Assembly: GCA_964618315.1 (NCBI GenBank)
Contig: CAZTWQ010000001.1
Location: 6,877 to 70,876 of the forward strand
Direction of reading: 5' to 3'
DNA length: 64,000 nucleotides
Source: an uncultured Methanosarcinales archaeon
GTDB taxonomy: Archaea > Nanobdellota > Nanobdellia > Woesearchaeales > JACPBV01
How positions within the stretch are numbered: the stretch's first letter is position 1; every line of letters starts with the position of its first letter. Shown one piece after another: positions 3,126-61,176 of the stretch. The position numbers and the translations under genes are program-made. A model generated the notes under the pieces. The model was given only the letters and a program-made list of their open reading frames with translations. It searched no databases and was not told the DNA's origin.

Positions 3126-3157
3126 TATTGTATTCTGTGTTTGTTTGATAATCCATT

Positions 3158-4046: not shown

Positions 4047-4050
4047 TTTA

Positions 4051-4170: not shown

Positions 4171-4172
4171 TT

Positions 4173-4298: not shown

Positions 4299-4308
4299 AA
4301 AAAACACC

Positions 4309-4809
4309 TCATTCTATCTTTTTGAATTGTTCTTTGTTTGCACTACATACCGGACAAGTATCTGGTGCTTCGCCTTCTACTGTATGGCCGCAGATTTGAC
4401 AAACATAAATGTCTTTTTCTTCTAAATCTTTTTCTTGTTTTACTGATTCTAGTGCTTTTTGATATAATCCAGCATGAGTTTTCTCAACAGTATTAGCTTT
4501 ACTGAAACTGATCTTTGCTGCCTGGTTCCCCTCTGATTCTGCTTCTTCAATCATTTTTGGATACATCTCAGTAAATTCATGAGTTTCTCCGTCTATCGCT
4601 TCCTGCAGGTTTTCTGCAGTTGTTTTAATCCCATCTAAAACCTTTAAATGGTTATGTGCATGAACTGTTTCTGCATCTGCTGCTGCTCTAAATAATTTAG
4701 CTACTTGTTTAAGGTCTTCTTGGTCTGCTTTTTTTGCAAAAGCAAGGTATTTTCTATTTGCCTGACTTTCTCCTGCGAAAGCTGATTTTAGATTATCTTC
4801 TGTAGTCAT
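4309..4809 (-). CDS. rbr: rubrerythrin
   Basis: N-terminal ferritin-like diiron motifs plus a C-terminal rubredoxin-like CQICGH...CPVCS motif. Confidence 0.85.
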
Positions 4810-7116: not shown

Positions 7117-7272
7117 GATTCGTTCTTTTTCATTAAAAAAACTTTTTTTCTAGAAATAGTTTAGGTAATGTGTGTTAGTTTCTCCTACCTAGGGAATCCC
7201 CATGAAAACCATAAAGTTTATATATAAGTCTATATATATTATTATATAAATTCATATAAATAGGTGATTTAA

Positions 7273-8039: not shown

Positions 8040-9992
8040 TCATGTTAATATCCCTAAGATAGGGAATACATAATTTGATAATGCCCCGAAGATTAAAGCA
8101 ATTATTATTGTTGCCAGAATTATATATGTTGCTCTTTTCCAACCTACTTCTCTGCCAAGAACAGCTATCGTGGCTACACAAGGTATGTATAATGATGTCA
8201 CTAAGCTGAATACGAAAATCTGTAATGGGGTTAAGAATGATAAGAGGTTACTTGTGCCGCCTATTGCAATCAGCATCTCTAAAGCCATCTCTTTTCTAAA
8301 GATTCCAAATAGTAATGTGATTCCTGCACTTGCTGGCAGGCCTAATAATCCCTGCATGATCGGTTCAAAAGGTTTCATTAAATAAATCAATAGATTGTAT
8401 TCTGTTAGTATGCCGATTAATGCTGCTCCTGCGATTAAAAGTGGGAATGCGATGTAAACAAAATCCTTAAGTCTTATCCATGTTTTTTTTATTATACCTT
8501 TTATAGATGGTAATCTGAAAGGGGGCATCTCTAGTATTAATCCTGTGTGTTCGCCAGGTAATAGTTTTCCTAAGACATATCCTGCTGCAAAGATTACGAT
8601 CAAGTCTATTGCATATATTAATAATGCAAATTGCCAGCCTACATATTTTGCAGTTGCCCCTAATATTACTGCAGTTACTGCAGAACATGGTACTAAACAG
8701 ACCATCACTATTGTTATGAAACGCTCTCTGAATGAAGATAATGTTCTTGTTGAAAGGATTGCAGGTACGTTGCAGCCAAAGCCAAGCATCATAGGTATGG
8801 TTGATTTACCATGTAGTTTTAATCTGTGCATTACCCTATCTAATAAATATGCCATCCTTGTTAAATATCCTGAATCTTCTAAGATACCCATCATTATGTA
8901 GAATACTGTGATATAAGGGATTGCTATTGCTAAGCCTGATTCTATACCAACTATGAAGCCATGTTCAAGAAGAACTTTTATGAAATTAATAGGGATTGTA
9001 CCTATTATAATTCTGAATATAGGTGCAATGTAAGTTTGAAAAGAGTTTATTAAGACTTGTTCAAGGTTGCCTCCAACTGTGAAAAGAGTATAGAACATTA
9101 TAGCTAATATTGATATTAAGATTGGAATTCCTGTTTTTGGTTCTATTGTCAGTCTGCTTAATCTTTCTCTGAGATTTATATTATTCTTTTTTCCTATCTG
9201 TGTTACTTTTTTTGCAATCAAAGATGATTCCCCATGACGATCTTTTGATATGTATGTAGGAATATCATGGAATTTTTTGTATCTTGAGATTGTCTTTTCT
9301 ACCCTTCCTTTTCGCCTTATTTCATGCCATGGAAGGGAACTACCTTCCAGAAGATCCAATATAATTTCCCGTTTGTTTTCTGTTAATACTTTTAGATCCT
9401 GGATAAGGTTTTCTATATGATCATCATATTTTGGTTTAAAGTAATTGAATCTAATCTTTTTGTTGATTACTTCTTCACATTTTTTTGCGAGTTTTTCTAT
9501 GCCTTTTCCGTTTAAGCAGTCTACTTCTACAACTGGAACTCCAAGTGTTTTGCTTAATTCTTTTGAGTTTATTATAATGCCTTTGTCCCTTGCTTCTTCT
9601 ATAAAATTTAGGGCTATAACTACAGGTAATTTATGCTCTATCAATTGTAATGTGAGATATAGGTTTCTTTCAAGATTGTTTGCATCTATCACATTTACTA
9701 TAACTGATGGTTTTCGGCATATGATATAATCTCTTGTCACTTTTTCATCTTCAGAAGACTCGCCAAAAGAATAAGATCCAGGCAGATCTGTTATCTTTAT
9801 ATCCTTAAAATATTTTAGATTTGTCAATCCACTCATGACATCTACTGTAGTTCCTGGATAGTTAGAGACTGTTGCACCAATGCCTGTAAATTGATTAAAG
9901 AGGCAGCTTTTACCAACATTGGGGTTAGCTACTAAAGCTATCTCTTTACTAAATTTTAGTTCATCTAATTTAGGTATAGTATGACATTTCAT
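8040..9992 (-). CDS. feoB: ferrous iron transporter FeoB
   Basis: N-terminal G-domain (GNPNVGKS, DLPG) followed by a polytopic membrane domain; 650 aa. Confidence 0.9.
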   Translation of the reverse strand: MKCHTIPKLDELKFSKEIALVANPNVGKSCLFNQFTGIGATVSNYPGTTVDVMSGLTNLKYFKDIKITDLPGSYSFGESSEDEKVTRDYIICRKPSVIVNVIDANNLERNLYLTLQLIEHKLPVVIALNFIEEARDKGIIINSKELSKTLGVPVVEVDCLNGKGIEKLAKKCEEVINKKIRFNYFKPKYDDHIENLIQDLKVLTENKREIILDLLEGSSLPWHEIRRKGRVEKTISRYKKFHDIPTYISKDRHGESSLIAKKVTQIGKKNNINLRERLSRLTIEPKTGIPILISILAIMFYTLFTVGGNLEQVLINSFQTYIAPIFRIIIGTIPINFIKVLLEHGFIVGIESGLAIAIPYITVFYIMMGILEDSGYLTRMAYLLDRVMHRLKLHGKSTIPMMLGFGCNVPAILSTRTLSSFRERFITIVMVCLVPCSAVTAVILGATAKYVGWQFALLIYAIDLIVIFAAGYVLGKLLPGEHTGLILEMPPFRLPSIKGIIKKTWIRLKDFVYIAFPLLIAGAALIGILTEYNLLIYLMKPFEPIMQGLLGLPASAGITLLFGIFRKEMALEMLIAIGGTSNLLSFLTPLQIFVFSLVTSLYIPCVATIAVLGREVGWKRATYIILATIIIALIFGALSNYVFPILGILT

Positions 9993-13090: not shown

Positions 13091-14137
13091 TTATCCTGAA
13101 TAATCATATTTATTCATTTTAAATCCAGAATTAACCCTATGTCTTATTGTGCTTGGAGGTATATTAATTAGGGGTGATATTTTATAAGGAGTTAATCCTT
13201 TTTCTGTTAATTCTTTTATTCTTATATTCTGATTATTTATCTTTTCAAATCTTTTTTGATAATGATTTAAAGCATTCGAAAGTTTTTTTCTTTTTTCAGG
13301 ATGAGTAAATCCAATTAGTTTACTATATCTAAGGATTGATTTATTGCGGCCTATTGTGATAGTTGGTTCAGAAATCCTAGATTGAATTCCTAAGTCTTCC
13401 AATAGGGATTTGATGAATAGGAGCTCTTCCTCGCACTTTTGTGATCCACTAACAGAAAACATGCCTTTTTTTAGATTGAAATGGACACAACCTTCATCAT
13501 CAAAGAAAGCCTTTAGATATATTTTTTTGTATTCATCATTAGTTATTATGATAGTTTTATCAAAATTAAGAATATCTAAATGCATTAATTTGGAAGAGTA
13601 AATAAGTTGAGTTACTCCTGAACCTACTTTTGATCTTGTTGGTTTTAATCCATAAACAAAGCCCATATCATTTTCAAATTCACTTAATAATTCTTGATTT
13701 TTGTTTATGTAACTAATTACATAAGAGTTATTTTTACTAACATAACCATCAAATATTGAATGTGCATAGATCCTTACTTTTTCTTTGGTTATTTTATCAA
13801 ATCCTTTTTTAAGGGGTTTAGGATAGATAGGAAATTGAACTTTCCCCTTAATGCAATCTTTTATGAAATTTATAGAATGGCCTGTAATTTTTCTAACTTT
13901 TCTTAGAGATTTAACTTTGTTATAAATCTTACATAGATTGTCAACTTTTTGGTTTTTCTTAATTCCTGCTATTTCACTATTAGATTTTATATGAATTCCA
14001 CCCTTGATTAATCTTTTCTTAATGCCTTCTCTTGAAAGTCCAAACTTTTTTGCTAAATTAGTTAATGTTATTCTTTTATCTAAGACATATATTTTTTCAA
14101 TTTCTTTAATTATTTCTTCTGATATTTTTTTTATCAT
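13091..14137 (-). CDS. LAGLIDADG-type homing-endonuclease-like protein with N- and C-terminal HTH domains
   Basis: Two LAGLIDADG-like motifs (HSIFDGYVS and KAFFDDEGCV), an N-terminal HTH (LTNLAKKFGLSREGIKKRL) and a C-terminal HTH (GLTPYKISPLINIPPSTIRHRV). Confidence 0.6.
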   Translation of the reverse strand: MIKKISEEIIKEIEKIYVLDKRITLTNLAKKFGLSREGIKKRLIKGGIHIKSNSEIAGIKKNQKVDNLCKIYNKVKSLRKVRKITGHSINFIKDCIKGKVQFPIYPKPLKKGFDKITKEKVRIYAHSIFDGYVSKNNSYVISYINKNQELLSEFENDMGFVYGLKPTRSKVGSGVTQLIYSSKLMHLDILNFDKTIIITNDEYKKIYLKAFFDDEGCVHFNLKKGMFSVSGSQKCEEELLFIKSLLEDLGIQSRISEPTITIGRNKSILRYSKLIGFTHPEKRKKLSNALNHYQKRFEKINNQNIRIKELTEKGLTPYKISPLINIPPSTIRHRVNSGFKMNKYDYSG

Positions 14138-17926: not shown

Positions 17927-18089
17927 GGCTGCGTTGAAAATCTCACTACGTTCGGGTTGCCATCGGGTTCGCTTCTTGAAGTTGGTATGGATAACTGACA
18001 TTCCCCGTAAGGGACCTCCCCCTTGTCAGTTTGAAGTGATTATCTATCAAGCTCACGAATTGATGGCGACCTATATTTTCAACGCAGCC
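17927..18089. mobile_element. MITE-like element E1 (163 bp, about 15-bp TIR GGCTGCGTTGAAAAT, degenerate TSD)
   Basis: Its core is about 90% identical to E2 (36713..36875). Perfect terminal inverted repeats GGCTGCGTTGAAAAT / ATTTTCAACGCAGCC. Flanks GAATAAG / GGATAAG look like a decayed TSD. Confidence 0.45.
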
Positions 18090-23923: not shown

Positions 23924-24364
23924 ATGTTAAGAGGGAGGCATATTTTTGACAAAGGGGCTTCAAAATTACTCATTTCTAGACTTAGAAATATACAAAAAAA
24001 AGAAGGTTACTTATCTGAAGAGAATCTGAAAGGAGTATCAAAAGAAACAAAAATACCTATAACAAGGGTATATGAAGTGGCTACATTCTATTCATTTTTT
24101 AATGTGAAGAAAAAAGGCAAGCATGTAATCAGATTATGTAACTCCCCTGCATGTCTTGTTAATGGTTCTGAGAATATATTAGATATATTTGAGAAATTAT
24201 TAGGTATTAAATTAGGACAGACAACAGAAGATGGGAATTTTACTCTAGAAACCACTTCATGTATAGGGTGCTGTGATGAAAGCCCAGCAGCTTTAGTAGA
24301 TGAAAAAGCACATACTAATCTTAATGAAGATAAAATAAAAGAGATAATCGAAAAATGCAAGTAA
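23924..24364 (+). CDS. NuoE-like [2Fe-2S] subunit of bifurcating [FeFe]-hydrogenase (HydC)
   Basis: NuoE-type Cys pattern CNSPAC...TSCIGCC. Confidence 0.8.
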   Translation: MLRGRHIFDKGASKLLISRLRNIQKKEGYLSEENLKGVSKETKIPITRVYEVATFYSFFNVKKKGKHVIRLCNSPACLVNGSENILDIFEKLLGIKLGQTTEDGNFTLETTSCIGCCDESPAALVDEKAHTNLNEDKIKEIIEKCK

Positions 24365-25458
24365 CTAAAAAAACAGAGTTTAAGGGATTTGAAAAAGCAG
24401 TAAATTTGAAGCCAGAAGAAGTTATACAGGTAGTTAAAAAATCAGGATTAAAAGGGAGGGGGGGAGCAAACTTCTCAACAGGTCTAAAATGGGAATTTAC
24501 AAGAAAAAGTCCAAATCCTACTAAAGTTGTTATATGCAATGCTGATGAAGGGGAGCCAGGCACTTTTAAGGATAAATTAATACTTACAGAGAACCCATCT
24601 ATTGTAATTGAAGGGATAGCGATTGCAGCTTATGCAATTGGAGCTAAATTTGCTTATATCTATTTAAGAGCAGAATACGAGTATTTGAAGGAAAATCTTG
24701 AAAAAGCAATAGAAGAATATAAGGCTGAGTTGGACAAGATAGAATTAAATATTGATATTGTGATGGGTGCTGGAGCTTATATTTGTGGTGATGAAACTGC
24801 AATAATGAATTCTATACAAGAGCTTAGAGGAGAGCCACATGCAAAACCACCATATCCAGTTGAATCAGGGTTATGTAATTATCCAACTACAATAAATAAT
24901 GTTGCTACATTGGCAAATGTTCCCTTGATAATGTTAGATGAATGGGATGATCTAAGATTATATTCATTATCAGGTAATTTAGATAGTCCAGGGGTTTATG
25001 AGATGCCTTTAGGAATAACTACTAAAGAACTTATTGAGAAAGGAACCCCTAAAGAAGAGATAAAAGCATTATTCTTTGGATGTGCAGGTGGTTGTTTACC
25101 TTATGATCCTGAAATGAAACTGGATGTTGAATCAGTAAATGAAAAAGGTGCAATGCTTGGGAGTTGCACTGTTATTGCAATTGGAAAAAGCCAAAGCATA
25201 CCTAAAATCTGTAAGAATATAGCTGAATTTTTTGTTCATGAAAGTTGTGGTAAATGTACTCCTTGTAGGGAAGGTAATTTTAGAGTTTTAGAGATAATCA
25301 ATAAGATTGTTGAAAATAAAGCAGATGAAGATGATTTGAATGCATTGGAGGATCTTGCTATTTTTATCAACAAAACTTCATTATGTGGATTAGGACAAGC
25401 ATCTAACACACACATAAAAACAGCACTAAAATATTTTAGAGAGGAATTTACAAAATGA
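24355..25458 (+). CDS. NuoF-like NADH-binding FMN/[4Fe-4S] subunit (HydB, minimal form)
   Basis: GRGGANFSTGLKW, FMN and NADH motifs and ESCGKCTPCREG; lacks the N-terminal thioredoxin-like and C-terminal ferredoxin domains present in the second copy. Confidence 0.8.
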   Translation: MQVTKKTEFKGFEKAVNLKPEEVIQVVKKSGLKGRGGANFSTGLKWEFTRKSPNPTKVVICNADEGEPGTFKDKLILTENPSIVIEGIAIAAYAIGAKFAYIYLRAEYEYLKENLEKAIEEYKAELDKIELNIDIVMGAGAYICGDETAIMNSIQELRGEPHAKPPYPVESGLCNYPTTINNVATLANVPLIMLDEWDDLRLYSLSGNLDSPGVYEMPLGITTKELIEKGTPKEEIKALFFGCAGGCLPYDPEMKLDVESVNEKGAMLGSCTVIAIGKSQSIPKICKNIAEFFVHESCGKCTPCREGNFRVLEIINKIVENKADEDDLNALEDLAIFINKTSLCGLGQASNTHIKTALKYFREEFTK

Positions 25459-27152
25459 GCCAGATTATGATAAATGGGGTTCAATTTGAGGCAAAAGAAG
25501 GGGAGACTATCCTTGAATTATGCAAAAGAAACAATGTAGAGATACCTCACCTTTGTTACCATCCTGATCTAGAAGCTCAAGCAAGATGTAGGATATGTGT
25601 TGTGAGTGTAAATGGTAAATTAGTCACTTCATGTAATACAAAAGTAATTGATGGTATGAACATAATAACAGAGAATGATGAGATAATAAAAGCAAGGAAA
25701 TTGAATATGGAATTGCTGCTTGCTAACCATGATGCTAAGTTAGAGGATAATGAGTTAGGTAAAGTTGCAAAAAAATTAGGTGTAGATAAAAGCAGGTTTG
25801 ATAAAATTCAAGATAAAACAGTTGATGATAGCAGTGCAGGGATACATCATGATAACAATAAATGCATATTGTGTGGGAGATGCGTACAAAAATGCCAAAC
25901 TATTCAAAGTGTTTTTGCAATAGGATTTGAAAACAGAGGACACTATACTGAAGTAAACCCTTACTTTAATCACGGATTAGGTGATGTTTCATGTGTTCTT
26001 TGCGGTCAATGTACAAATGTCTGCCCTTCTCAGGCATTGATGGAAAAAGATTATACTAAAGAAGTTACAGATGCTATAAATGATTCTGATAAGGTAGTTA
26101 TTGTACAGACAGCACCTTCAATAAGAGGTACACTAGGGGAGACTCAAGGTATGGAGCCAGGAAGTTTAGTAACTGGAAAGATGGTCGCTGCTTTAAGAAA
26201 ATTAGGTTTTGATAAAGTACTAGATACAAACTTTACAGCTGATTTAACAATAGTTGAGGAAGGAAATGAACTTATTCAAAGGGTGAAAAATAAGGGGGTA
26301 CTCCCACAGATAACTTCATGCAGCCCTGGTTGGGTAAAATTTATAGAGCATTTTTATCCTGAACTCCTACCTAATTTAAGTTCATGTAAGAGTCCTCAGC
26401 AAATGTTTGGGACTTTGTTAAAGACATATTATGCTAAAAAGAATAATATTGATCCTTCTAAGATAGTTTCGGTTTCAATAATGCCTTGTATAGCTAAGAA
26501 ATACGAGATGAACAGGCCGGAGATGAAAGATTCTGGTTTTAAAGATGTTGATTATTCCTTAACTACGAGGGAGCTTGGAAGGATGATAAAAGACGCAGGG
26601 ATTGATTTTGCTAATCTAGAAGATGATAAATTCGATCCTATAATGGGTGAGTCAACTGGTGCTGCAGCAATATTTGGAGCTACTGGTGGTGTAATGGAAG
26701 CCGCTTTGCGTACAGCTGTAGATATTTTAGAAGGAAAAGATCTTCAAGAGATAGAATATACTGGAGTTAGAGGATTAAAAGGAATAAAAGAAGCAACAGT
26801 TAAGGTTGCTGGTATTGATGTTAGTGTAGCTGTTGCTCATGGCCTAGGAAATGCAAGAGCACTTATGGAAATGGTCAAGAAATATCCTTCAAAATATCAT
26901 TTTATAGAAATAATGGCATGTCCTGGTGGATGTGTTGGTGGAGGGGGTCAACCAGCCCCTACTAATTCTGAAGTTGTAAAGAAAAGATCAGAAGCACTTT
27001 ATGCGGAAGATAAGGGCTTAACTTATAGAAAATCACATAAGAACCCTGAAATAATCCAGCTTTATGAAGAGTTCTTAAAAGAGTATGGTTCGCATAAAGC
27101 ACATGAATTATTGCATACAAAATACACAGCAATGAATGAATTAGGGGATTAG
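25455..27152 (+). CDS. hydA: [FeFe]-hydrogenase catalytic subunit HydA (copy 1, non-canonical L1 motif)
   Basis: N-terminal 2Fe-2S plus two [4Fe-4S] motifs. H-cluster motif L2 MPCIAKKYE and L3 EIMACPGGCVGGGGQP are present, but L1 reads TSCSPGW instead of the canonical TSCCPxW. Confidence 0.85.
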   Translation: MSQIMINGVQFEAKEGETILELCKRNNVEIPHLCYHPDLEAQARCRICVVSVNGKLVTSCNTKVIDGMNIITENDEIIKARKLNMELLLANHDAKLEDNELGKVAKKLGVDKSRFDKIQDKTVDDSSAGIHHDNNKCILCGRCVQKCQTIQSVFAIGFENRGHYTEVNPYFNHGLGDVSCVLCGQCTNVCPSQALMEKDYTKEVTDAINDSDKVVIVQTAPSIRGTLGETQGMEPGSLVTGKMVAALRKLGFDKVLDTNFTADLTIVEEGNELIQRVKNKGVLPQITSCSPGWVKFIEHFYPELLPNLSSCKSPQQMFGTLLKTYYAKKNNIDPSKIVSVSIMPCIAKKYEMNRPEMKDSGFKDVDYSLTTRELGRMIKDAGIDFANLEDDKFDPIMGESTGAAAIFGATGGVMEAALRTAVDILEGKDLQEIEYTGVRGLKGIKEATVKVAGIDVSVAVAHGLGNARALMEMVKKYPSKYHFIEIMACPGGCVGGGGQPAPTNSEVVKKRSEALYAEDKGLTYRKSHKNPEIIQLYEEFLKEYGSHKAHELLHTKYTAMNELGD

Positions 27153-27296
27153 TGGTAGTTAATTTCTATTTTTATTTTTGTGGTAATTAAACAATATATC
27201 AGTTTCTAATAAGTTATGTGGAGTATAAAATAATAAATTAAATAATGTGGTAATTAAACTAAAATAAAAAGCTTTTTATAAGAGTGGTAATTAAAC
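27152..27296. promoter_or_regulatory. four direct copies of a 13-bp motif GTGGTAATTAAAC (the first copy is degenerate) between the two hydrogenase modules
   Basis: Copies at 27152 (GTGGTAGTTAATT), 27180, 27247 and 27284, ending 7 nt before the ATG of the second hydC. Confidence 0.35.
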
Positions 27297-27302
27297 TATT
27301 TT

Positions 27303-27908
27303 ATGCCTTATCTTAAACAAGTAACAATAAACAATAATGAATACTATTACCTATTCCATACAGTAAGAGTAGGGGATAAATTCAAAAAATTAAGCAAGTA
27401 TGTAGGTAAGAATAAGCCATCGGATAATGAATTAGGTAGATTAAAAAAAGAATTCCTTAAAGAAATAAATAAAGAGCCTGTTGAATTTGAAGAAGAAGTT
27501 CCAAAAGTTAATGTTGTTGAAGAATTGCAAGATCTGCAAGATAAAGAGGGGTATCTATCTAAAGAAAGTATGATCAAAATTTCAAAAGAGAAAGATATAC
27601 CTGGTGTTAAGCTCTATGGTGTTGCAACTTTTTATTCTCAATTTAGACTAAAACAAAAAGCAAAGAATACAATAAGTGTTTGTAGGGGAACTGCATGTCA
27701 TGTTAAGGGTTCTGATTCTTTATTAGAATATCTGGAAGAAATTCTAGAAATAAAATCTGGGCAGACAACAAAAGATGGAAAAATAAACCTGGAGTGTGTT
27801 AATTGTATAGGTGCTTGTGCAAAAGCTCCTGCGATTATGGTTAATGATGAAGTGTATGGTGAATTAACCAAAGAAAAAGTGAAAAAAATAATTGAAGGAC
27901 TAAAATGA
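27303..27908 (+). CDS. NuoE-like [2Fe-2S] subunit (HydC copy 2) with an N-terminal extension
   Basis: CRGTACHVKGS...CVNCIGACAKAP; the roughly 70-aa N-terminal extension is of uncertain reality. Confidence 0.75.
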   Translation: MPYLKQVTINNNEYYYLFHTVRVGDKFKKLSKYVGKNKPSDNELGRLKKEFLKEINKEPVEFEEEVPKVNVVEELQDLQDKEGYLSKESMIKISKEKDIPGVKLYGVATFYSQFRLKQKAKNTISVCRGTACHVKGSDSLLEYLEEILEIKSGQTTKDGKINLECVNCIGACAKAPAIMVNDEVYGELTKEKVKKIIEGLK

Positions 27909-29632
27909 AAATTACAGTTGGATTAGCAACATGTGGAATTTCCGCAGGAGGGATGCCTGTTTTTGAAGCTTTGAAGAATGAGGGTTTTGAAGTAGAAAAA
28001 GTTGGATGTATAGGTATGTGTTATAATGAGCCATTAGTAACTGTCATTGAAGGTGATAAAAGAGAAGTTTATGGTTTGGTTACAAAAGATAATGTGCAAA
28101 AGTTGATTGATTGTCTTAAGAAAGAAGAAGTGTGTAAAGAACTATTCATAACTGATAATATTAATGAACTTGATTTCTATAAGAAACAAAAAAGATTAGT
28201 AATGGAAAATTGTGGTTTGATAAATCCATTAAGTTTGGAACAATACAAAGAAAATGAAGGGTATAAGGGGTTGAAAAAAGCTTTAGATATTGAACCTAAT
28301 CAGGTTATAGAAAATATAAAGAGTTCGGGGTTAAGAGGTAGAGGGGGGGCAGGTTTTCCTGTAGGACTTAAGTGGAGTTTTATTGTAGACAAAAAGGGGA
28401 AGAAATATCTAATCTGTAATGGAGATGAAGGTGATCCTGGAGCATTTATGAATCGTACAATAATGGAATCTGATCCCTTTAAGCTTATAGAAGGTATGAC
28501 AATAGCAGCATATGCCATAGGTTCTGATGAAGGTATCATATATACTAGGGCAGAATATCCTTTGGCAATAAAGACCTTAGAAAAAGCAATTAAAATAGCA
28601 AATGATAATAATCTTCTTGGAGATAATATATTGGGAAAGAAGAATTTTAACTTTAAGTTATATATCAAAAAAGGTGCAGGAGCTTTTGTTTGTGGAGAAG
28701 AAACTGCTTTGATAAATTCAATAGAAGGTAAGAGAGGTATGCCTAGGCCAAGACCACCTTATCCTACTGATTGTGGGTTGTATGGAAAGCCAACTGTAAT
28801 AAACAATGTAGGGACACTCAGCCATATAGCTACAATAATGAAAATAGGTGTTGATGAATATATCAAGATTGGTACTGAGAAAACAAAAGGGACTAAAGTT
28901 ATATGCTTAGCGGGGAAGATAAAAAGAGCAGGAGTTATTGAAGTTCCAATGGGTATTCTGTTAAGAGACATAATATTTGAGATTGGGGGTGGTGTTCCAG
29001 AAGGAACTAAGTTTAAAGCTGTACTATCTGGTGGACCTGCAGGGGGATGTGTACCTGAACAACATTTAGATATCCCGCTAGACTATGAACCATTACAGGA
29101 ACTAGGGGCAATAATGGGTTCAGGAGGCATAGTTGTCATAAACGATAAATCATGCATGGTTGATGTTGCAAGATATTTTATGAGTTTCACACAAGAAGAA
29201 AGCTGCGGCAAATGCACCCCTTGTAGAGAAGGGACAATGCGTTTACTTGAGATGCTAACACAAATAACCAGAGGTGTTGGTGGAAGAGAAGATATCAATA
29301 AAATAAAATTATTGTCTGAATTTGTCAGGGATAATGCATTATGTGGTCTTGGACAGAATGCTCCTAACCCCATACTTTCTACATTAAGGTTTTTTGAAAA
29401 TGAATATATAGATCATCTGGAAAAGAAAAAATGTCCTGCAAAAGCATGTAAAGGTCTTGTAAAATATAGTATAACCGAGAAATGTATTGGTTGTGGGAAC
29501 TGCGCAAGGCATTGCCCTGTTGAGGCTATATCCGGTAACTTAAAAGAGAAACATGTGATTGAACAAAGTAAATGTGTAAAATGTGGGAAGTGTTATGAAG
29601 CATGCGCTTTTGATGCTATTGAGAAAAAATGA
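27905..29632 (+). CDS. NuoF-like subunit (HydB copy 2, full-length, with C-terminal 2x[4Fe-4S] ferredoxin domain)
   Basis: GRGGAGFPVGLKW, ESCGKCTPCREG, and a C-terminal CIGCGNCARHCP...CVKCGKCYEACA. Confidence 0.85.
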   Translation: MKITVGLATCGISAGGMPVFEALKNEGFEVEKVGCIGMCYNEPLVTVIEGDKREVYGLVTKDNVQKLIDCLKKEEVCKELFITDNINELDFYKKQKRLVMENCGLINPLSLEQYKENEGYKGLKKALDIEPNQVIENIKSSGLRGRGGAGFPVGLKWSFIVDKKGKKYLICNGDEGDPGAFMNRTIMESDPFKLIEGMTIAAYAIGSDEGIIYTRAEYPLAIKTLEKAIKIANDNNLLGDNILGKKNFNFKLYIKKGAGAFVCGEETALINSIEGKRGMPRPRPPYPTDCGLYGKPTVINNVGTLSHIATIMKIGVDEYIKIGTEKTKGTKVICLAGKIKRAGVIEVPMGILLRDIIFEIGGGVPEGTKFKAVLSGGPAGGCVPEQHLDIPLDYEPLQELGAIMGSGGIVVINDKSCMVDVARYFMSFTQEESCGKCTPCREGTMRLLEMLTQITRGVGGREDINKIKLLSEFVRDNALCGLGQNAPNPILSTLRFFENEYIDHLEKKKCPAKACKGLVKYSITEKCIGCGNCARHCPVEAISGNLKEKHVIEQSKCVKCGKCYEACAFDAIEKK

Positions 29633-31338
29633 ATAAAATAAAGATTAGGTTGAATAGTGTAGATGTTGAATGTAAAGAAGGGGATATGATTATAGATGTA
29701 GCTAAGAAAAATGGTATTGACATACCCCACTTCTGCCATAATGGCAGGCTAGAAAGGATAGGTGCATGTAGGATATGTGTTGTTGAACAAAAAGGAAAAC
29801 AAAAATTAGTTGCTTCTTGTTGTACTCCGGTTAATGAGGGGATGGAAATAGTTACACACACCCCCAGAGTTTTGGAGGCAAGAAGGATTAATATTGAGCT
29901 TTTGCTTGCAAACCATGATTTGAATTGTACAACCTGCAAGGAAAATCTAATCTGTAAACTACAAAGATATGCTGAAGAGTTAATGGTAAGAGATATAAGG
30001 TTTGAGGGAGAAAAAAGATGGGAGGATGTTGATAATTCAAGTGTTTCTATAAGGAGGGATAATAATAAATGCATACTTTGTGAACAATGTGTTAGGATAT
30101 GTAGCAATATACAGACAGTACATGCTATTGGATTACAGAACAGGGGTTTTAACACAAAGGTTGCACCCCCATTTAATACTCCAATAAACAAGAGTTCTTG
30201 TGTAAAATGCGGTCAGTGTGTTGTTGCTTGTCCAACAGCTGCATTAACTGAAAAAAGTGATATACAACCAGTTATAGATGCACTCAACTCTGATAAATAT
30301 TTAGTTGCACAAACTGCTCCTTCTATCCGTGCTACATTAGGCGAATGTTTTGGGATGCCTGCTGGAACATCTGTAACGGGCAAGATGGTTGCTGCTTTGA
30401 GGAAGATAGGTTTCAAGAAAGTTTTTGATACTGACTTAGCTGCTGATATTTGCATAATAGAAGAAGCAACAGAATTTGTTAAGAGATTTAAAGATAAAAA
30501 AAATTTACCTATGATAACAACTTGTTGTCCTGCATGGATCAAGTTTGGAGAACAGTTCTTTTTTGAGCAGCTTAACCACATGTCTTCATGTAGAAGTCCC
30601 CAAGCAATACTTGCCTCTTTGATCAAAACCTATTTTGCAAAGAAGATGAAAGTAGATCCAAAAGATATTATCTTGGTAGATATTATGCCCTGCACAGCAA
30701 AGAAATTTGAAATATTGAGACCTGAGTTCAAAGGAGAAGCAGATTATGTTTTGACCACAATAGAGCTTGCTAAGCTTATAAAACAACTTGATGTAGATTT
30801 TGTTAATCTTAATGATGAAGATTTTGATAATCCATTGGGTGAAAGCACAGGAGCAGGAGCAATATTTGGCCATACTGGGGGAGTAATGGAAGCTGCTTTG
30901 CGTACTGTAGCTGATTGGGTCAGTGGAAAAAATCTAAAGAAGATAGATTATAAAGATATAAGAAATATGGAAACAATGAAAGAGGCTGAACTTAAGATAG
31001 GTGGTGAAAATGTGAGGATAGCTGTTGTCCATACACTAGGTGAAGCCCGTAAATTGATGAATCAGATCAAGGCAGGGAAGAGCCCATATCATTTTATTGA
31101 GATTATGGCATGTTATGGTGGTTGTATTGGGGGAGGAGGACAACCCCCACCACATAATAAGAAAACCTTAGCTAAAAGGACTAAAGCATTAATTGATGTT
31201 GATGAAAGGAAAAAGATAAGAAAATCCCATAAAAATCAATCTGCACTTAAGATCTACAAAGAATATCTAGGGGAGTTTGGGAGTGAAAGAGCACATAAAC
31301 TGCTGCATACAACTTATTCTAAGAAAGAATATATCTAG
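29629..31338 (+). CDS. hydA: [FeFe]-hydrogenase catalytic subunit HydA (copy 2, canonical)
   Basis: L1 TTCCPAW, L2 MPCTAKKFE and L3 EIMACYGGCIGGGGQP, plus the N-terminal FeS domains. Confidence 0.85.
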   Translation: MNKIKIRLNSVDVECKEGDMIIDVAKKNGIDIPHFCHNGRLERIGACRICVVEQKGKQKLVASCCTPVNEGMEIVTHTPRVLEARRINIELLLANHDLNCTTCKENLICKLQRYAEELMVRDIRFEGEKRWEDVDNSSVSIRRDNNKCILCEQCVRICSNIQTVHAIGLQNRGFNTKVAPPFNTPINKSSCVKCGQCVVACPTAALTEKSDIQPVIDALNSDKYLVAQTAPSIRATLGECFGMPAGTSVTGKMVAALRKIGFKKVFDTDLAADICIIEEATEFVKRFKDKKNLPMITTCCPAWIKFGEQFFFEQLNHMSSCRSPQAILASLIKTYFAKKMKVDPKDIILVDIMPCTAKKFEILRPEFKGEADYVLTTIELAKLIKQLDVDFVNLNDEDFDNPLGESTGAGAIFGHTGGVMEAALRTVADWVSGKNLKKIDYKDIRNMETMKEAELKIGGENVRIAVVHTLGEARKLMNQIKAGKSPYHFIEIMACYGGCIGGGGQPPPHNKKTLAKRTKALIDVDERKKIRKSHKNQSALKIYKEYLGEFGSERAHKLLHTTYSKKEYI

Positions 31339-31539: not shown

Positions 31540-32316
31540 ATGAAAACGCAAAATTTAACTCAAAAATTGAACTTTTATGAATTGATTGGAGTTATTTTGG
31601 GGGATGGATGTATAAAATACTATCCTTCACATAAAGTATATACCCTAGAAATAACTGGAGATGCAAAAGATGATCAAGAATATTTTAGTAAATTATCGAA
31701 GTTAATTACAAGTATAACTAATAAAACTCCAACTGTTAGAATAAGCATAGATAAGAAAAAGCGAGCCTTGAGATTAGAATTACACAGTAAAAAGTTTTTG
31801 GAGTTTTTATTGAACGATGTAGGAATAACTAATAAAAAGAAATCATTCAATGCAGAAATCCCTAAGAAGTACCTAGAGTGGAAATATAGTAAACATATTA
31901 TTAGAGGCATATTTGAAACAGATGGTTCACTTTATTTTTCAAAATCAAAAAAGATTAAATACACTTCTTATCCAAGGATAGAAATTAAGACATCTAGTAA
32001 AAAATTAGCTTTGCAAATATTTGAATTGCTCAAACAAAAAGCTTTTAAAGTACAAAAGAGACCTAGCAAAACAGATAAGACAATTAGAGTCTATCTTAGT
32101 GGATCTGAAATGCTTAATAAATGGTTAAAAGAAATCGGTTTTTCAAGTATGAAAAAATACAGTAAATATTTGTTTTGGAAAAAATTTGGTTATTATATTC
32201 CAAAAACACCTTATAAGAAAAGAATGATTCTCATAAGGGAGCATGGCCAAGTGGCTAAGGCGTCCGCCTGCAGAGCGGATATTCGGGGGTTCAAATCCCT
32301 CTGCTCCCTCTTATAA
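31540..32316 (+). CDS. LAGLIDADG-type homing-endonuclease-like protein (paralog 2); the ORF reads through tRNA-Cys
   Basis: Motifs IGVILGDGCI and IRGIFETDGSL. The last 27 codons or so are encoded by the tRNA-Cys sequence, so the true C-terminus is uncertain. Confidence 0.5.
   Translation: MKTQNLTQKLNFYELIGVILGDGCIKYYPSHKVYTLEITGDAKDDQEYFSKLSKLITSITNKTPTVRISIDKKKRALRLELHSKKFLEFLLNDVGITNKKKSFNAEIPKKYLEWKYSKHIIRGIFETDGSLYFSKSKKIKYTSYPRIEIKTSSKKLALQIFELLKQKAFKVQKRPSKTDKTIRVYLSGSEMLNKWLKEIGFSSMKKYSKYLFWKKFGYYIPKTPYKKRMILIREHGQVAKASACRADIRGFKSLCSLL
32237..32308 (+). tRNA. tRNA-Cys (GCA)
   Basis: Hand-folded cloverleaf: acceptor GGGAGCA/TGCTCCC, anticodon stem TCCGC/GCGGA with loop CTGCAGA, T-loop TTCAAAT; 72 nt with no encoded CCA; immediately upstream of cysS. 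Confidence 0.8.
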
Positions 32317-36712: not shown

Positions 36713-36875
36713 GGCTTAGTAGAAAATCTCCCGTTGGTCGGGTTGCCATCGGGTTCGCTTCTTGAAGTTGGTATAGATAACTGACATTCCCCGTAAGGGA
36801 CTTCCCCCTTGCCAGTTAGATGTATCTATTTAAGAAGCTCATAAATTGATGGCAACCTATATTTTCTACTAAGCC
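36713..36875. mobile_element. MITE-like element E2 (163 bp) with 19-bp TIR GGCTTAGTAGAAAA... and a perfect 9-bp TSD GAGAAAAAG
   Basis: TSD copies at 36704..36712 and 36876..36884; termini GGCTTAGTAGAAAAT / ATTTTCTACTAAGCC; internal sequence homologous to E1. Confidence 0.55.
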
Positions 36876-38358: not shown

Positions 38359-39810
38359 GTGTATATTTTCCGTGAATATATGGTATTAACAATAGAAGAT
38401 ATGTCGGTCTTTTGCAAGAAGAAGGGTTTTGTTTATCCTAATAGTGAACTTTATGGTGGATATGCTGGATTTTTTGATTATGGGCCGTTAGGAGTAGAGC
38501 TAAAGAATAATATCAAATCTGCTTTTTGGAAGACTTTTGTACATAAGAGAGATGATGTTGTAGGTATAGATGGAACAATAATAACAAATCCTAAAGTATG
38601 GAAAGCATCAGGGCATGTAGATTCTTTTACTGATTATATCTATAAATGTGATAAATGTAAATTATTGATCAAAGGTGATAATGATAAAGGATTGAAATGC
38701 ACTAAGTGTGGTGCTGATCTAGAGAGTCAAGGTCAGTTCAATCTTATGTTCACTACCCAAGTTGGACCTATTAAAGGGGATGTTTCTTATTTAAGGCCAG
38801 AGACTGCCCAAGTTATCTTTACAAACTATAAATTAGTACAAGAAGGTGCTCGTAAAAAATTGCCTTTTGGTATTGCTCAAGTCGGCAAGGCTTTTAGAAA
38901 TGAGATATCTCCACGTGATTTCTTATTTCGATCTAGGGAGTTTGAGCAGTTTGAAATAGAATTTTTTGTGCATCCAGATAAAACAAATGATTGCCCTTAT
39001 GTTAAAGAAGTTGAGAATATTAAATTGCAAATCTTAACACAGAAGAACCAGGAGAATGATGAAGACCATATCGAGATGACTATCAAGGATATTGTAGATA
39101 AAAAAGTTGCTTCTCAATGGCATGCTTATTGGCTAGCTAAATATTATCAATTTTTTATCGATATAGGGATAAATCCAAGTAATTTAAGGCTTCGTGAACA
39201 TCTAAAAGATGAATTAGCGCATTATGCTTCTGCATGCTTTGATATTGAATATAAATTTCCATTTGGATGGAAAGAGATACATGGAAATGCAGATAGAGGG
39301 CAGTTTGATTTAAAGCAACATATGGAAGCGTCTAAAACTTCGTTGGAGTATTATGACGAAGAAAGTAAGGGGAAAGTTATTCCTTATGTCGCTTCAGAGC
39401 CCTCTCAGGGTATTGATAGGGCATTTTTAGCGTTTATGTTTGAAGCTTATAATGACGATAAAGACAGAGGGAATGTTGTTTTGAAGTTGGATTCCAGGTT
39501 AGCTCCTGTTAAAGTGGGTGTTTTTCCCTTGGTTAATAAGTTGAATGATAAGGCAAAAGAGATATTTGGTTTATTGAATGATGAGTTTAATTGCGCCTAT
39601 GATAAATCTGGTTCTGTTGGTCGTAGGTATGCTAGAGCTGATGAGATGGGAGTACCTTATTGTGTTACTATTGATTTTGATACATTGGAAAAAGGAGATT
39701 GTACTATAAGGGATAGGGATTCGACTAAGCAAATTAGGGTTAAAGTAGAGGATATAGTTAAGGTTTTGAGTGGTTTATTGAAGAATAAATTAAAATTTAA
39801 TGAAATATAG
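38359..39810 (+). CDS. glyS: glycyl-tRNA synthetase (archaeal/eukaryal alpha2 type)
   Basis: Class II motifs with the YGGYAGFFDYGPLG N-terminal signature; the start is probably an internal Met near 38380. Confidence 0.85.
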   Translation: MYIFREYMVLTIEDMSVFCKKKGFVYPNSELYGGYAGFFDYGPLGVELKNNIKSAFWKTFVHKRDDVVGIDGTIITNPKVWKASGHVDSFTDYIYKCDKCKLLIKGDNDKGLKCTKCGADLESQGQFNLMFTTQVGPIKGDVSYLRPETAQVIFTNYKLVQEGARKKLPFGIAQVGKAFRNEISPRDFLFRSREFEQFEIEFFVHPDKTNDCPYVKEVENIKLQILTQKNQENDEDHIEMTIKDIVDKKVASQWHAYWLAKYYQFFIDIGINPSNLRLREHLKDELAHYASACFDIEYKFPFGWKEIHGNADRGQFDLKQHMEASKTSLEYYDEESKGKVIPYVASEPSQGIDRAFLAFMFEAYNDDKDRGNVVLKLDSRLAPVKVGVFPLVNKLNDKAKEIFGLLNDEFNCAYDKSGSVGRRYARADEMGVPYCVTIDFDTLEKGDCTIRDRDSTKQIRVKVEDIVKVLSGLLKNKLKFNEI

Positions 39811-40744: not shown

Positions 40745-40852
40745 TTCAATATAGAAATGGGATAATAAATAAAAAGGTATCTTAATTGAGTGTAGATATG
40801 AGGGTTAAAATAATAATGTTTATATAGGGTTATTTAATTCTATAGTCTTGAT

Positions 40853-40998
40853 GGGGCTGTAGCTCAGCCTGGGAGAGCACTAGACTGAAGTTCCTATGAT
40901 CTGCAGAGGCTTTTGCCGATGAAGAGCAGAGATCTAGGTGTCCTGGGAAGTCGCAATACCATGTGCGTCTTGGGAAAATTCAAATTCCGGCAGCCCCA
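40853..40998 (+). tRNA. tRNA-Phe (GAA) with a canonical 41-nt intron at position 37/38 and a predicted second intron of about 31 nt in the T-arm
   Basis: 5' half GGGGCTGTAGCTCAGCCTGGGAGAGCACTAGACTGAAG; exon 2 A-TCTAG-GTGTC-CTGGG; exon 3 TTCAAATTCCGG-CAGCCCC-A. The mature length would be 74 nt with a standard cloverleaf. Confidence 0.7.
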
Positions 40999-41765
40999 CT
41001 CTTTTTTAAACCTTTTATTATTTTAGGGGGTCTTCCTTTTTTACTTGTGATTGTTCCACTTTTTAGATATTCTTCATACTTATTAAGATGTCTTTGGTTT
41101 CTAAAACCAATTAATTTCATCCATAATTGAAGGTTTTGACGACCACTTAATCTTAATCTGCTTTCAATCCAAGTTTTTCCAAACCTTTTATCAAAATTTC
41201 TATCTTCTGGAATAAAGTCAACATTAAAACCTAATTTTTCTAGAAATTTTGAGAATAGTATGATTATTTTTTTATCCACTAAACTTAAAGATATTACTGG
41301 GTAATGTGGATATTTCTTTCTATTTCTATAGAGCATTAAAGAAAAATCTGTATCTGCTAATCCCTTAAGGGTGTGTAGAAGATAATCTTGGTTATTGAGT
41401 ATCCAATTTGGAATTTTAATATTCCTACTATGATGTTTATAGTATCCCATTCCCTTAATGAAATTGAATAATCCTAGTGAACTGAAGTTAATTTCTATTA
41501 AATTCTTATATTTCCTTTGGATAATTTTAACATTTATGTTAAAAAGGTTTTTGATTAAATTTTTTACATAGTGAAAATAATCATAATCTAATCTAGAATC
41601 TCCTGATACAGATATGATATTATATCTAGTATTAAAGCTAACATGCCCATCTCCTGCCAGTATACCAATAAACTCTGCTAATTTTTTAGATGGTCCCTTA
41701 GGTAAAACTAAGCCTCGTTTTCTATCTACATGACTAAATTCTATTTTTGATATATCAAATTCCAT
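40980..41765 (-). CDS. LAGLIDADG-type homing-endonuclease-like protein (paralog 3)
   Basis: Motifs IGILAGDGHVS and LKGLADTDFS; the 3' end overlaps the 3' end of tRNA-Phe on the opposite strand by about 19 nt. Confidence 0.55.
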   Translation of the reverse strand: MEFDISKIEFSHVDRKRGLVLPKGPSKKLAEFIGILAGDGHVSFNTRYNIISVSGDSRLDYDYFHYVKNLIKNLFNINVKIIQRKYKNLIEINFSSLGLFNFIKGMGYYKHHSRNIKIPNWILNNQDYLLHTLKGLADTDFSLMLYRNRKKYPHYPVISLSLVDKKIIILFSKFLEKLGFNVDFIPEDRNFDKRFGKTWIESRLRLSGRQNLQLWMKLIGFRNQRHLNKYEEYLKSGTITSKKGRPPKIIKGLKKSGAAGI

Positions 41766-45430: not shown

Positions 45431-47713
45431 CTATATCTCTTTCTTTTTTATGCTTCTTTTTAACCATTCATTCCATTCAAAAAATATTCTTTTTGAATCT
45501 AATGAACCAACTTCTTCTTTTACGTTATCTGATATCCTATGAAATTCATCATTTGATTGTATTACAAACTTTGCTTCTAATAATGAAAGATCTTTCTGTT
45601 TAACAGCAAAATTTACCATCGCTTCTTTGGTTTTAGCTCTGAGCATTATATTATCCCATACTGCATCCCAATTGCCTGCCCAGTCTTTTACAGAACCGGC
45701 TATAGATTTTAGAAGTTCAGAATCCCCATTTATCAAATCGTTTGAGGGTTGCAGTTCGTCTGTTTTACTGTCATATTTCATCAGATCAGAAAATCCATTT
45801 TCTAGTGATGGGTCTTGCTCCCATTGTTTTCTTACTTCTGTTATCTGTGTTATTCTCCTCCATTTATGCAGACCATCTGCTGAACGTATAGGATTTGCTA
45901 CTACAATCAAGTCTGTTGCTTTAAAGCTTGTTCTAGGAACTTCCAAATCATTAACTACCCTATCAAAAACACCATATGGTGAATCTCCGTGAATAGTCCC
46001 TGCCACAACATTTGCCAATGCACCAACACGCATTGCTTCATAAAGTGATTTGGCCTCTGTCGAACGTACTTCACCCACAATTAAACATGAATCTCCCAGT
46101 CTTAGTGTTGTTCTTATCCCTTCTTCTGCTGAAACTTCTGCAGTTCCTTTTGACATTGCTGATGCTACTTTCATCTGTTGAATGTTATAACCAAGTTTTC
46201 TTAATGCAGTGGAAGGTAATTCTAATGTATCTTCTATAGTGATCAGCCGATATTTTCTCATTATTTCTATCAACATAGCTCCAAGTAAAGATGTTTTACC
46301 TGCAGACCTTGTTCCTGCTACTAACATTGTCCTAGACCCATCTATAATAAAGCTTAATATTCCTGCAGCTAATGGATTCAACATTTTGTTGTGGACAAAC
46401 AAAGGCAATGTCCAAGGATCATCCCTATGCCTTCTAAATGCATAAGCTAACCCAGTCGGATCTAAAGGGGCAGTAATGGCGGCTACTCTAGCACGTGCAC
46501 CAGGTATTTCTAATTCTGTATCTAAAATAGGATTTGCTTCATCTAAGGGTCTACCTGAAATCATCCTAAGTTTAGATGCCCAAGAATCTGCTTCTGTTAC
46601 TACGGGCATCACGTTTGTTTTACAATCCCCAAAATCAGCATGAACAAGGAACATAGGTATCTCACCCATAGGGGAGTTTATAGTTATGTCCTGTACTTTT
46701 GGGTCTTTTAGCAATACCTCTATCAGCCCAAATCCAACTGTGTACCTTACTAAAATATTTGTTAATTCATCAACATCTTTTGGCTTTAGCCTTATTTTCT
46801 TAAATTCTGCTAATTCTTCTATTAAATCACGACCAATATTATAAAAGACATTTCGCATCCTTTCTGGGTCAACAAATTCGCTTTTCTTTGGCTTATGCTC
46901 TGTCATAATTTTCCTTGCAGAATCAAGTATTTCGTATTTGTCTTCGCTTAATCTAAATTCGGGAGGATTTATATGGTAAAGGTATTGTATTGTATCTGGT
47001 AATTTAAATATTGTAACTTCTGTGTTGTCAACTATATAAGAATCCAGCTCTTCTCCTTCTTCTGGGAATTTTGACATTAGTTTTGTGAAAAGGAAATCTG
47101 GTTTGATCAATGGTTTAAACACAGTCCTATAAATATCCCTAGAGCCTACTTTGTATCCTGCTAAGTGGGGTTTTACTGTTGATATAAGTTGTGTTGATTC
47201 CAGAAGTTGGATAAGGTGAGTCAGTATTCCAAGGTATTTTGGCTGGCATCTTCTGCATCTAGGATCTTTTCCTTTTTGATATTTTATATTTTCATCCCTT
47301 AATAATCTCCTTAAATCGACGTAAGCGCCTATTGGATCTGATCTTAAAAGATTAGATGCTATATTTCTAACATCTGAGTACCACTTGGCAACGCATTTTG
47401 TACAAGTTGGGTCATATACAAATGCGTTATAACTAAGAACCTCTTTTTGTTTTACTAATTTTTTGTATAGGTCTGCTATCCCCTTTAGGAAGGTTGTTTG
47501 AGAGTAATCATATTCTATATTTCTTTTTTGAAAGTAAACAATCTTAGTTACTGTACCTGCTTCATTAAGAATGTCACAAGTTTTGGACATGGTTACAGGA
47601 TCATCTTCTAAAGAAGGGACTTTTGTATAAGATTCACAATTAATCTGAAGAATGACGTCATCTCCTTCACGGAGTATATCATATGAAAATGGCTTTTTGT
47701 CAAATAATGGCAT
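45431..47713 (-). CDS. type IV secretion/pilus assembly ATPase (FlaI/VirB11/PilB-like) with a long N-terminal extension
   Basis: Walker A GTRSAGKTS and a Walker B/Asp-box in the C-terminal half; 760 aa, against roughly 550 aa typical for FlaI. Confidence 0.8.
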   Translation of the reverse strand: MPLFDKKPFSYDILREGDDVILQINCESYTKVPSLEDDPVTMSKTCDILNEAGTVTKIVYFQKRNIEYDYSQTTFLKGIADLYKKLVKQKEVLSYNAFVYDPTCTKCVAKWYSDVRNIASNLLRSDPIGAYVDLRRLLRDENIKYQKGKDPRCRRCQPKYLGILTHLIQLLESTQLISTVKPHLAGYKVGSRDIYRTVFKPLIKPDFLFTKLMSKFPEEGEELDSYIVDNTEVTIFKLPDTIQYLYHINPPEFRLSEDKYEILDSARKIMTEHKPKKSEFVDPERMRNVFYNIGRDLIEELAEFKKIRLKPKDVDELTNILVRYTVGFGLIEVLLKDPKVQDITINSPMGEIPMFLVHADFGDCKTNVMPVVTEADSWASKLRMISGRPLDEANPILDTELEIPGARARVAAITAPLDPTGLAYAFRRHRDDPWTLPLFVHNKMLNPLAAGILSFIIDGSRTMLVAGTRSAGKTSLLGAMLIEIMRKYRLITIEDTLELPSTALRKLGYNIQQMKVASAMSKGTAEVSAEEGIRTTLRLGDSCLIVGEVRSTEAKSLYEAMRVGALANVVAGTIHGDSPYGVFDRVVNDLEVPRTSFKATDLIVVANPIRSADGLHKWRRITQITEVRKQWEQDPSLENGFSDLMKYDSKTDELQPSNDLINGDSELLKSIAGSVKDWAGNWDAVWDNIMLRAKTKEAMVNFAVKQKDLSLLEAKFVIQSNDEFHRISDNVKEEVGSLDSKRIFFEWNEWLKRSIKKKEI

Positions 47714-61020: not shown

Positions 61021-61080
61021 ACTGAAACAATATTATAAATATTATAAAAGGTTTTCTAAAAAACTTTATTTAAAAAAGCC

Positions 61081-61176
61081 CTTGGGAAGAGTTGCACTCC
61101 CGACCTGCTGATTACGAATGCTGAGTTGAAGATAAACAACTGTCAGCCGCAATAGCTACTATGCTACAAGGGCATG
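61081..61176 (-). ncRNA. tRNA-like structured RNA candidate (possibly an intron-containing tRNA), followed by a T-run
   Basis: On the minus strand there is a perfect 7-bp terminal helix (GCCCTTG/CAAGGGC), a D-arm-like segment and an anticodon-arm-like hairpin (GCTGA...TCAGC) around a CAGTTG loop. It is followed by TTTTTT. Confidence 0.3.

Follow-up and report, generated by a model that had tools for sequence, protein, structure and literature searches.

The gene for tRNA-Phe(GAA) that is the subject of this work occupies positions 40853-40998 (+) of a stretch of 64,000 nucleotides (hereafter called the window) and carries two introns of the bulge-helix-bulge (BHB) type (Table 1). It is preceded by genes encoding a valyl/isoleucyl-type tRNA synthetase, an RFC-like AAA+ ATPase, GlyRS, and an OB-fold protein and is followed by genes encoding a 726-aa protein and then a T2SSE ATPase. 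The GC content of the window is 30-35%, and the best named relatives of the GlyRS gene (38359-39810) lie in Nanoarchaeota and Woesearchaeota MAGs. The host is a tiny, uncultured DPANN archaeon with about 33% GC, of the Nanoarchaeota/Woesearchaeota type.

Judging from the established structure of archaeal promoters, TTTATATA would act as the promoter of the gene, and a similar (A)AAGTTTATA(T/A)A motif is found at a comparable upstream distance in six related loci (L001, L002, L005, L058, L065, and L071). The T6 run shortly after the discriminator is likely the transcription terminator. A T run lies closely 3' of most orthologous tRNA-Phe genes (it is absent in L015, L029, and L070). Read from the sequence, the 3' end of the gene does not encode CCA.

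Table 1. Features of the tRNA-Phe(GAA) gene of the window and, in the last three lines, relatives of the gene with four or five introns
Feature	Position	Strand	Details and basis
TATA box TTTATATA	40819..40826	+	Its centre lies some 30 nt upstream of the mature 5' end; read from sequence
Exon 1	40853..40890	+	tRNA positions 1-37; ARAGORN on spliced product, Rfam tRNA alignment
Acceptor stem	40853-40859 with 40991-40997	+	GGGGCTG paired with CAGCCCC, 7 bp
D arm			GCTC-AGCCTGGGA-GAGC in DNA; GCUC-AGCCUGGGA-GAGC in RNA
Intron 1	40891..40931	+	41 nt, canonical, 37/38; script applying BHB rule
k-turn-like module	40906..40922	+	Inside intron 1: GA, GGC-UUUU-GCC stem-loop, GAU bulge, GA
Exon 2	40932..40946	+	tRNA positions 38-52; exact splice mapping and BHB rule
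Intron 2	40947..40977	+	31 nt, non-canonical, 52/53, in T arm; script applying BHB rule
Exon 3	40978..40998	+	tRNA positions 53-73; sequence, ARAGORN, splice mapping, Rfam alignment
Discriminator	40998	+	A
T6 run	41002..41007	+	Three bases past the discriminator; read from sequence
Relative L002 (Ga0307435_1000002)	8559-8735		4 introns: 4/5, 18/19, 25/26, 52/53
Relative L065 (identical in L066, two independent assemblies)	6674-6886		4 introns: 30/31, 37/38, 46/47, 59/60
Relative L005 (Woesearchaeota MAG JAHWIN010000020.1)	6951-7187		5 introns: 4/5, 30/31, 37/38, 46/47, 52/53

Neither ARAGORN with default settings nor Rfam at its gathering score reports the gene; both find in the window only tRNA-Cys (32237-32310). 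ARAGORN's intron option gives no match in the precursor, nor after the removal of intron 1 alone, because that option models only introns of the anticodon loop. It is only when both inserts are removed that ARAGORN returns a clean 74-nt tRNA-Phe(GAA). An insert of about 31 nt separates CTGG(G) from TTCAAAT-TCCGG, and the earlier note on this DNA had pointed out that a T arm can form only if about 31 nt are excised as well. When the Rfam tRNA model is applied to a small search space, it aligns end to end with exactly 40853-40998, leaving insertions of 44 and 40 nt, at 28.6 bits (E 3.4e-4) against a gathering score of 29. The central proposal of that note, a tRNA-Phe gene with one canonical intron at 37/38 and one non-canonical intron in the T arm, is thus borne out by the BHB motifs, ARAGORN, Rfam, and covariation.

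The three exons are colinear within 146 nt, neither split nor permuted. The first contains the 5' strand of the acceptor stem, the D arm, the 5' strand of the anticodon stem, and CUGAAG with the anticodon GAA. The second contains A38, the 3' strand of the anticodon stem, the variable loop GUGUC, and the T-stem bases C49, U50, G51, and G52. The third begins with A53 and continues with the T loop UUCAAAU, the 3' strand of the T stem (UCCGG), the 3' strand of the acceptor stem (CAGCCCC), and the discriminator A. Joined together, they form a 74-nt cloverleaf with the T arm CUGGA-UUCAAAU-UCCGG, closed by A53:U61 and including U50.G64. The predicted junctions read ...CUGAAG|AUCUAG... where intron 1 was and ...GUCCUGG|AUUCAAAU... 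where intron 2 was. The inserts, at 41 and 31 nt, fall short of the core of at least 200 nt required for self-splicing, and neither has a match in Rfam to a group I or group II intron.

For archaeal splicing endonucleases, the cut in each 3-nt bulge of a BHB motif follows the second base (PMC4090602), so the 5' exon, and likewise the intron, should end with a 4-nt helix strand plus two bases. Intron 1 fits this rule in its strict hBHBh' form, with both flanking helices of at least 2 bp: the anticodon stem (5 bp) serves as outer helix, the inner helix has 2 bp, and the two bulges read AG|U and AG|A. Its central helix, CUGA (40885-40888) against GCAG (40926-40929), forms three of four pairs, with an A35.G mismatch. 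The interruption comes after G37, and its removal restores the anticodon arm CTAGA-CTGAAGA-TCTAG (CUAGA-CUGAAGA-UCUAG in RNA) with anticodon GAA, just as had been read earlier. Introns of the same family are found in nine orthologues (window, L058, L001, L005, L010, L035, L039, L065, and L074). In an alignment of eight of them, leaving out L074, the family is 94.5-96.2% paired, with covariation in the internal stem, and pairing in the central helix, between C32-A35 and the intron's 3' end, stands at 87.5%. At A35 the pair is A-U in four of the eight and a mismatch in the other four, the window included.

Intron 1 also contains a module resembling a k-turn. Both of its GA dinucleotides are invariant in all eight homologous introns aligned, the bulge is RAU, and all three pairs of its stem covary (G-C to A-U, C-G to U-A). 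In all eight, a flanking pair between columns 39 and 60 of the alignment is likewise kept, with three types of pairs. As a sequence pattern, the module fits a k-turn, in which a canonical stem is followed by a 3-nt bulge, tandem sheared G.A/A.G pairs, and a non-canonical stem. Perhaps the module binds L7Ae and so helps to fold or mark the precursor, a speculative reading that its sequence may permit. A box C/D guide was also considered for intron 1, but the Rfam matches to sR9 and sR41 are at chance level (E 3-9), and an intron of 41 nt is too short for guide segments; a bare k-turn-like module is preferred. The intron of pre-tRNA-Trp in Haloferax volcanii reportedly carries a box C/D (k-turn) guide RNA, as Clouet d'Orval and coworkers described in 2001. 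The two cases are alike in placing an L7Ae-type k-turn module (a candidate here) inside a 37/38 intron, but the intron considered here has no recognizable C, D, C', or D' boxes or guide segments within its 41 nt.

Intron 2 departs from the strict form. Its central helix, UCCU (40941-40944) against GGGA (40972-40975), forms four of four pairs, one of them G-U, and it is flanked by the bulges GGG (40945-40947, cut as GG|G) and AAA (40976-40978, cut as AA|A). The search for a BHB motif at the T-arm junctions that the earlier note had suggested therefore succeeded, as did the ARAGORN check. In a motif scan, a match of this quality, with four of four central pairs and two 3-nt bulges at a given junction pair, occurred at roughly 1 in 1000 positions. 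The inner helix pairs AAG-U-CGCA (40948-40955) with UGCG-U-CUU (40964-40971), giving 3 + 4 bp around the loop AUACCAUG. The outer helix, by contrast with the requirement of hBHBh', is essentially absent, amounting to one pair, and because it is missing, intron 2 is assigned to the relaxed HBh' or bulge-helix-loop (BHL) class. The intron is carried by seven orthologues (window, L058, L002, L005, L072, L073, and L074). Aligned, these seven sequences show 97.6% pairing under the BHB model, with compensatory changes in six of the eight inner-helix pairs; none of 500 shuffles reaches the observed values, and pairing falls to 27-58% when the 3' partners are slid by one to three columns. The mature T stem is fully paired in all seven, including a compensatory U50:A64 in L072.

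The orthologues were obtained by scanning metagenome contigs for the pattern of the 3' exon and by looking up relatives of GlyRS, which together yielded 18 distinct genes, counting that of the window. A query of genome contigs with the GlyRS protein gave five loci, three of them useful, whereas the pattern scan of metagenomes and the look-ups of GlyRS relatives were far more productive. The gene order around tRNA-Phe recurs in relatives with 70-80% identity in GlyRS, and because it is shared, their tRNA-Phe genes can be taken as positional orthologues. The occurrence of the same split gene at the same syntenic position in many relatives also means that the tRNA-Phe gene is no chance match. All 18 are interrupted, by one to five introns each, and the positions used are ten in number: 4/5, 18/19, 20/21, 25/26, 27/28, 30/31, 37/38, 46/47, 52/53, and 59/60. 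The exons are nearly invariant across the set, while the introns diverge, appear, and disappear. Fifteen spliced products were tested with ARAGORN, and all 15 were 74-nt tRNA-Phe(GAA). In other metagenomes, four more contigs of the same species carry a tRNA-Phe gene identical in sequence to that of the window. One further relative, L004, counted apart from the 18, has an intronless tRNA-Phe gene, situated elsewhere than the syntenic site.

Nearly all introns of the orthologues have a central helix with four or three of four pairs. The most heavily interrupted gene, that of L005, spends 237 nt on a tRNA of 74 nt. Exact splicing with minimal introns had placed two of its junctions at 29/30 and 35/36, but the helices there are poor, and these positions were replaced by 30/31 and 37/38, which are consistent with BHB motifs. 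The intron at 30/31, present in both L005 and L065, splits the anticodon stem that the motif at 37/38 needs, which implies that splicing is ordered. The gene at L070:2590-2694 has a single insert of 31 nt in the T loop; a junction at 59/60 gives the correct product, with a central helix of only two of four pairs. TTCCGG is duplicated at the 3' side of this insert.

Gene structure, splicing motifs, covariation, conservation of the exons, and synteny establish, so far as sequence can, that the window contains a real tRNA-Phe gene with two introns. That it is a functional gene for tRNA-Phe(GAA), with both introns (at 37/38 and 52/53) of the BHB type and spliced by proteins, is very probable. The exact boundaries of the second intron require comment. 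They had been given earlier as 40948..40978, corresponding to 53/54; the length of 31 nt and the place in the T arm were right, but the intron lies one base upstream. Nearly all tRNAs have G at position 53, and a junction at 53/54 would provide it, in a T stem CUGGG/UCCGG with G53.U61. ARAGORN accepts this product as well, and the energies of the two cloverleaves are similar (-26.7 and -27.8 kcal/mol). Nonetheless, the register 40948-40978 sets CCUG against GGAA, which do not pair, and is absent from the motif scan; only 52/53 gives a central helix of 4 bp, and for that reason it was taken as the junction. It is also the junction that fits all seven orthologues carrying intron 2. Moreover, orthologous T arms that lack the intron confirm this independently. 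Those of L009/L052, L010, L015, L029, L035, L039, L045/L060, and L071 read CCGGA-TTCAAAT-TCCGG or the covarying CGGGA-...-TCCCG, and that of the fully intronless gene of L004, found directly by ARAGORN, reads GCGGA-TTCAAAT-TCCGC. All conform to NNGGA-TTCAAAT-TCCNN and so have A53:U61, the same as the spliced product of the window, and on this comparison A53:U61 is a trait of the lineage. The 53/54 register is accordingly very unlikely, and the mature sequence is expected to have A at position 53 (...CUGGAUUCAAAU...).

The ambiguity perceived earlier came from a direct repeat bounding the insert, CTGGGAA (40943-40949) and CTTGGGAAAA (40969-40978). Both copies are indeed present, but the pairing of the BHB motif and the orthologues resolve the boundaries. 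G-U pairs make the copies complementary to one another, and between them they supply both strands of intron 2's central helix together with the 3-nt bulges. An imperfect direct repeat at both ends of an insert might otherwise suggest the footprint of a mobile element, with the repeat as its target-site duplication and possibly a link to the LAGLIDADG gene, since an ORF of that type lies immediately 3' of the tRNA gene in both the window and L065. However, the orthologues retain the pairing between the copies while losing the repeat itself (in L005 the counterpart is CCCGGT... / ...CCGGGAAG), so the notion of an insertion scar was set aside. The insert has no room for a coding sequence, Rfam detects in it neither a group I or II intron nor any other element, and the LAGLIDADG ORF lies outside it and has no detectable relationship to the one in L065. 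A mobile-element origin of the insert is scarcely credible. Nor is it easy to see the locus as a decaying pseudogene, its T-arm insert never removed and Phe codons read by the product of another copy. Such a view would account for the failure of standard tools to find the gene, it could point to the homing-endonuclease ORF that adjoins the gene and is itself broken in some strains, and L004 does have an intronless tRNA-Phe elsewhere. But 18 orthologues, every one interrupted, share conserved exons, promoter, and terminator at the syntenic site, and compensatory changes maintain the BHB geometry of the inserts, a geometry that would not survive neutral decay. Furthermore, neither the 64 kb of the window nor the sequences flanking the orthologous loci yielded a second tRNA-Phe. 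Decay is therefore highly improbable.

For the functional, protein-spliced gene, we infer the steps of transcription, cleavage, ligation, and CCA addition, and the enzymes that carry them out, as follows. Transcription from the TATA promoter would produce a precursor of about 146 nt carrying both BHB introns. EndA, the archaeal tRNA splicing endonuclease, would act by the rule given above and cut at 40890/91, 40931/32, 40946/47, and 40977/78. At intron 1 it would recognize a near-canonical hBHBh' motif that uses the anticodon stem and at intron 2 the relaxed HBh'/bulge-helix-loop motif, in which U47-U50, bases of the variable loop and the T stem, pair with GGGA at the intron's 3' end. The lack of an outer helix puts the 3' site of intron 2 in a bulge-helix-loop context. 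An RtcB-type ligase would then join the three exons. The T stem CUGGA/UCCGG would form only after splicing, since until then U47-U50 are occupied in the central helix of intron 2, and CCA would be added enzymatically to the spliced molecule.

The absence of an outer helix implies that the lineage has a splicing endonuclease of broad specificity. Relaxed motifs are cut by EndAs with specific loop insertions, and in DPANN archaea an alpha4 enzyme with an L3 loop is associated with increased disruption of tRNA genes (PMC5829648). Strict alpha4 or alpha'2 endonucleases, on the other hand, would not be expected to cleave intron 2, given the lack of the outer helix. Among the 59 ORFs of the window that were scanned, none has a Pfam match to the EndA or RtcB families. 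Thermodynamic folding of the precursor does not recover the splicing motifs: the optimum (-54.5 kcal/mol) lies 10 kcal/mol below the splicing-competent fold (-44.5 kcal/mol) and pairs CCUGGGA of the D loop with the region of the T stem. With an optimal fold that lacks the motifs, comparative evidence was relied upon.

The window contains a second interrupted tRNA gene, tRNA-Thr(CGT) at 61077-61173 (-), with a non-canonical intron of 24 nt (61118-61141) at 32/33. Its central helix, GCUG/CAGC, has four of four pairs, and its bulges are AC|A and AU|U. The mature tRNA-Thr(CGT) has a D loop without G18G19 and an unusual T loop, UGCAACU.

Three ORFs of the LAGLIDADG type, at 40980-41765 (-), 31540-32316 (+), and 13091-14137 (-), look like free-standing homing endonuclease genes. 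Two of them adjoin tRNA genes and read into them: the first, on the strand opposite tRNA-Phe, has its end within that gene's T loop, and the second shares its strand with tRNA-Cys (32237-32310) and extends through it. The ORF beside tRNA-Phe is intact in L061, but two ORFs take its place in L063 and L064, members of the same species. In L065, an ORF occupying the same spot 3' of tRNA-Phe has a weak match to LAGLIDADG_3 and no detectable similarity to the ORF at 40980-41765. The idea that the latter might be part of intron 2, or shared with L065, was dropped, as the ORF does not lie within the intron and shows no detectable relationship to the L065 ORF. A further LAGLIDADG_3 domain is found, along with an intein, in the T2SSE-type ATPase of L074 (7391-7446), annotated at 1261 aa; the homologue in the window (45431-47713) has 760 aa.

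Elsewhere in the window, a structured element of about 163 nt occurs twice, at 17927-18089 (+) and 36713-36875 (+), and has no match in Rfam. A terminal stem of 15 bp, with three compensatory differences between the copies, encloses a nearly identical core of 116 nt closed by a 13-bp helix (GGGUUGCCAUCGG...). Possible identities for the element are a divergent 5S rRNA bearing a processing stem and some other small RNA. The region 23924-31338 (+) has two tandem gene sets resembling [FeFe]-hydrogenase with NuoE/NuoF-like subunits, each consisting of genes for a 2Fe-2S thioredoxin-like protein, a Nuo51-type protein, and the large subunit of an Fe-only hydrogenase. Genes for rubrerythrins and desulfoferrodoxin form an oxidative-stress cluster at 2060-4809.

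Multiple introns and non-canonical BHB introns are well established in Archaea (PMC4090602). Genes with several are known from Crenarchaeota, in particular the Thermoproteales Pyrobaculum, Thermofilum, and Caldivirga (Sugahara et al. 2007/2008, reviewed in PMC4090602 and PMC8450103). The resemblance to the present case is close: short introns with BHB or relaxed BHB motifs, located at 37/38 and at non-canonical positions that include the T arm, several of them in a single gene, and a normal cloverleaf after splicing. The host, however, is a DPANN archaeon with about 33% GC rather than a hyperthermophile of the TACK group. Reported positions of T-arm introns are 53/54, 56/57, and 59/60 (PMC4090602), and 52/53 is absent from that list, which is open-ended. 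A greater difference lies in number. Archaeal tRNA genes are said to contain up to three introns (PMC8450103, describing tRNAscan-SE 2.0), whereas here one orthologous gene has ten positions and up to five introns.

Within the DPANN superphylum, disrupted tRNA genes are known from ARMAN-2 (Micrarchaeum), which has an epsilon2 EndA (PMC3239211). That system and the DPANN systems with L3-loop EndAs share with the present one their superphylum, non-canonical and multiple introns, and relaxed motifs, but no EndA is encoded in the window, at least among the ORFs scanned. Outside Archaea, the tRNA-Ile(UAU) of Cyanidioschyzon has introns in its D arm, anticodon arm, and T arm (PMC9602550), and there, too, ectopic introns dependent on BHB motifs occupy several arms, the T arm taking shape only after splicing. 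Cyanidioschyzon, however, is a eukaryote with a Sen-type endonuclease, and its introns are unrelated.

A tRNA gene with two introns is thus of a type already known in Archaea, and the gene of the window is in itself an ordinary member of its class. Its lineage is not ordinary. What stands out are the relatives with four and five introns, which, as their genes read, exceed the published maximum of three for an archaeal tRNA gene. In a literature search, which was not exhaustive, no archaeal tRNA with more than three introns came to light, nor any description gene by gene for genomes of the Woesearchaeota type. With ten positions used in one orthologous gene of a single clade, the gene of the window is probably best regarded as a snapshot of an unusually dynamic population of introns.

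Some DPANN genomes have incomplete sets of predicted tRNAs, which points to disrupted genes yet to be identified (PMC5829648). The gene described here is a case in point: missed by default tools, it would leave its genome apparently without tRNA-Phe, the very gap noted in DPANN archaea. The junction at 52/53 together with the relaxed motif provides a template for finding such hidden genes, and the series of orthologues provides closely related alleles, with and without given introns, through which the gain and loss of tRNA introns can be studied. If all the introns are in fact spliced, then the lineage would have the most intron-dense tRNA system known, and it would serve as a test bed both for intron gain and loss in tRNA genes and for the limits of relaxed recognition by EndA.
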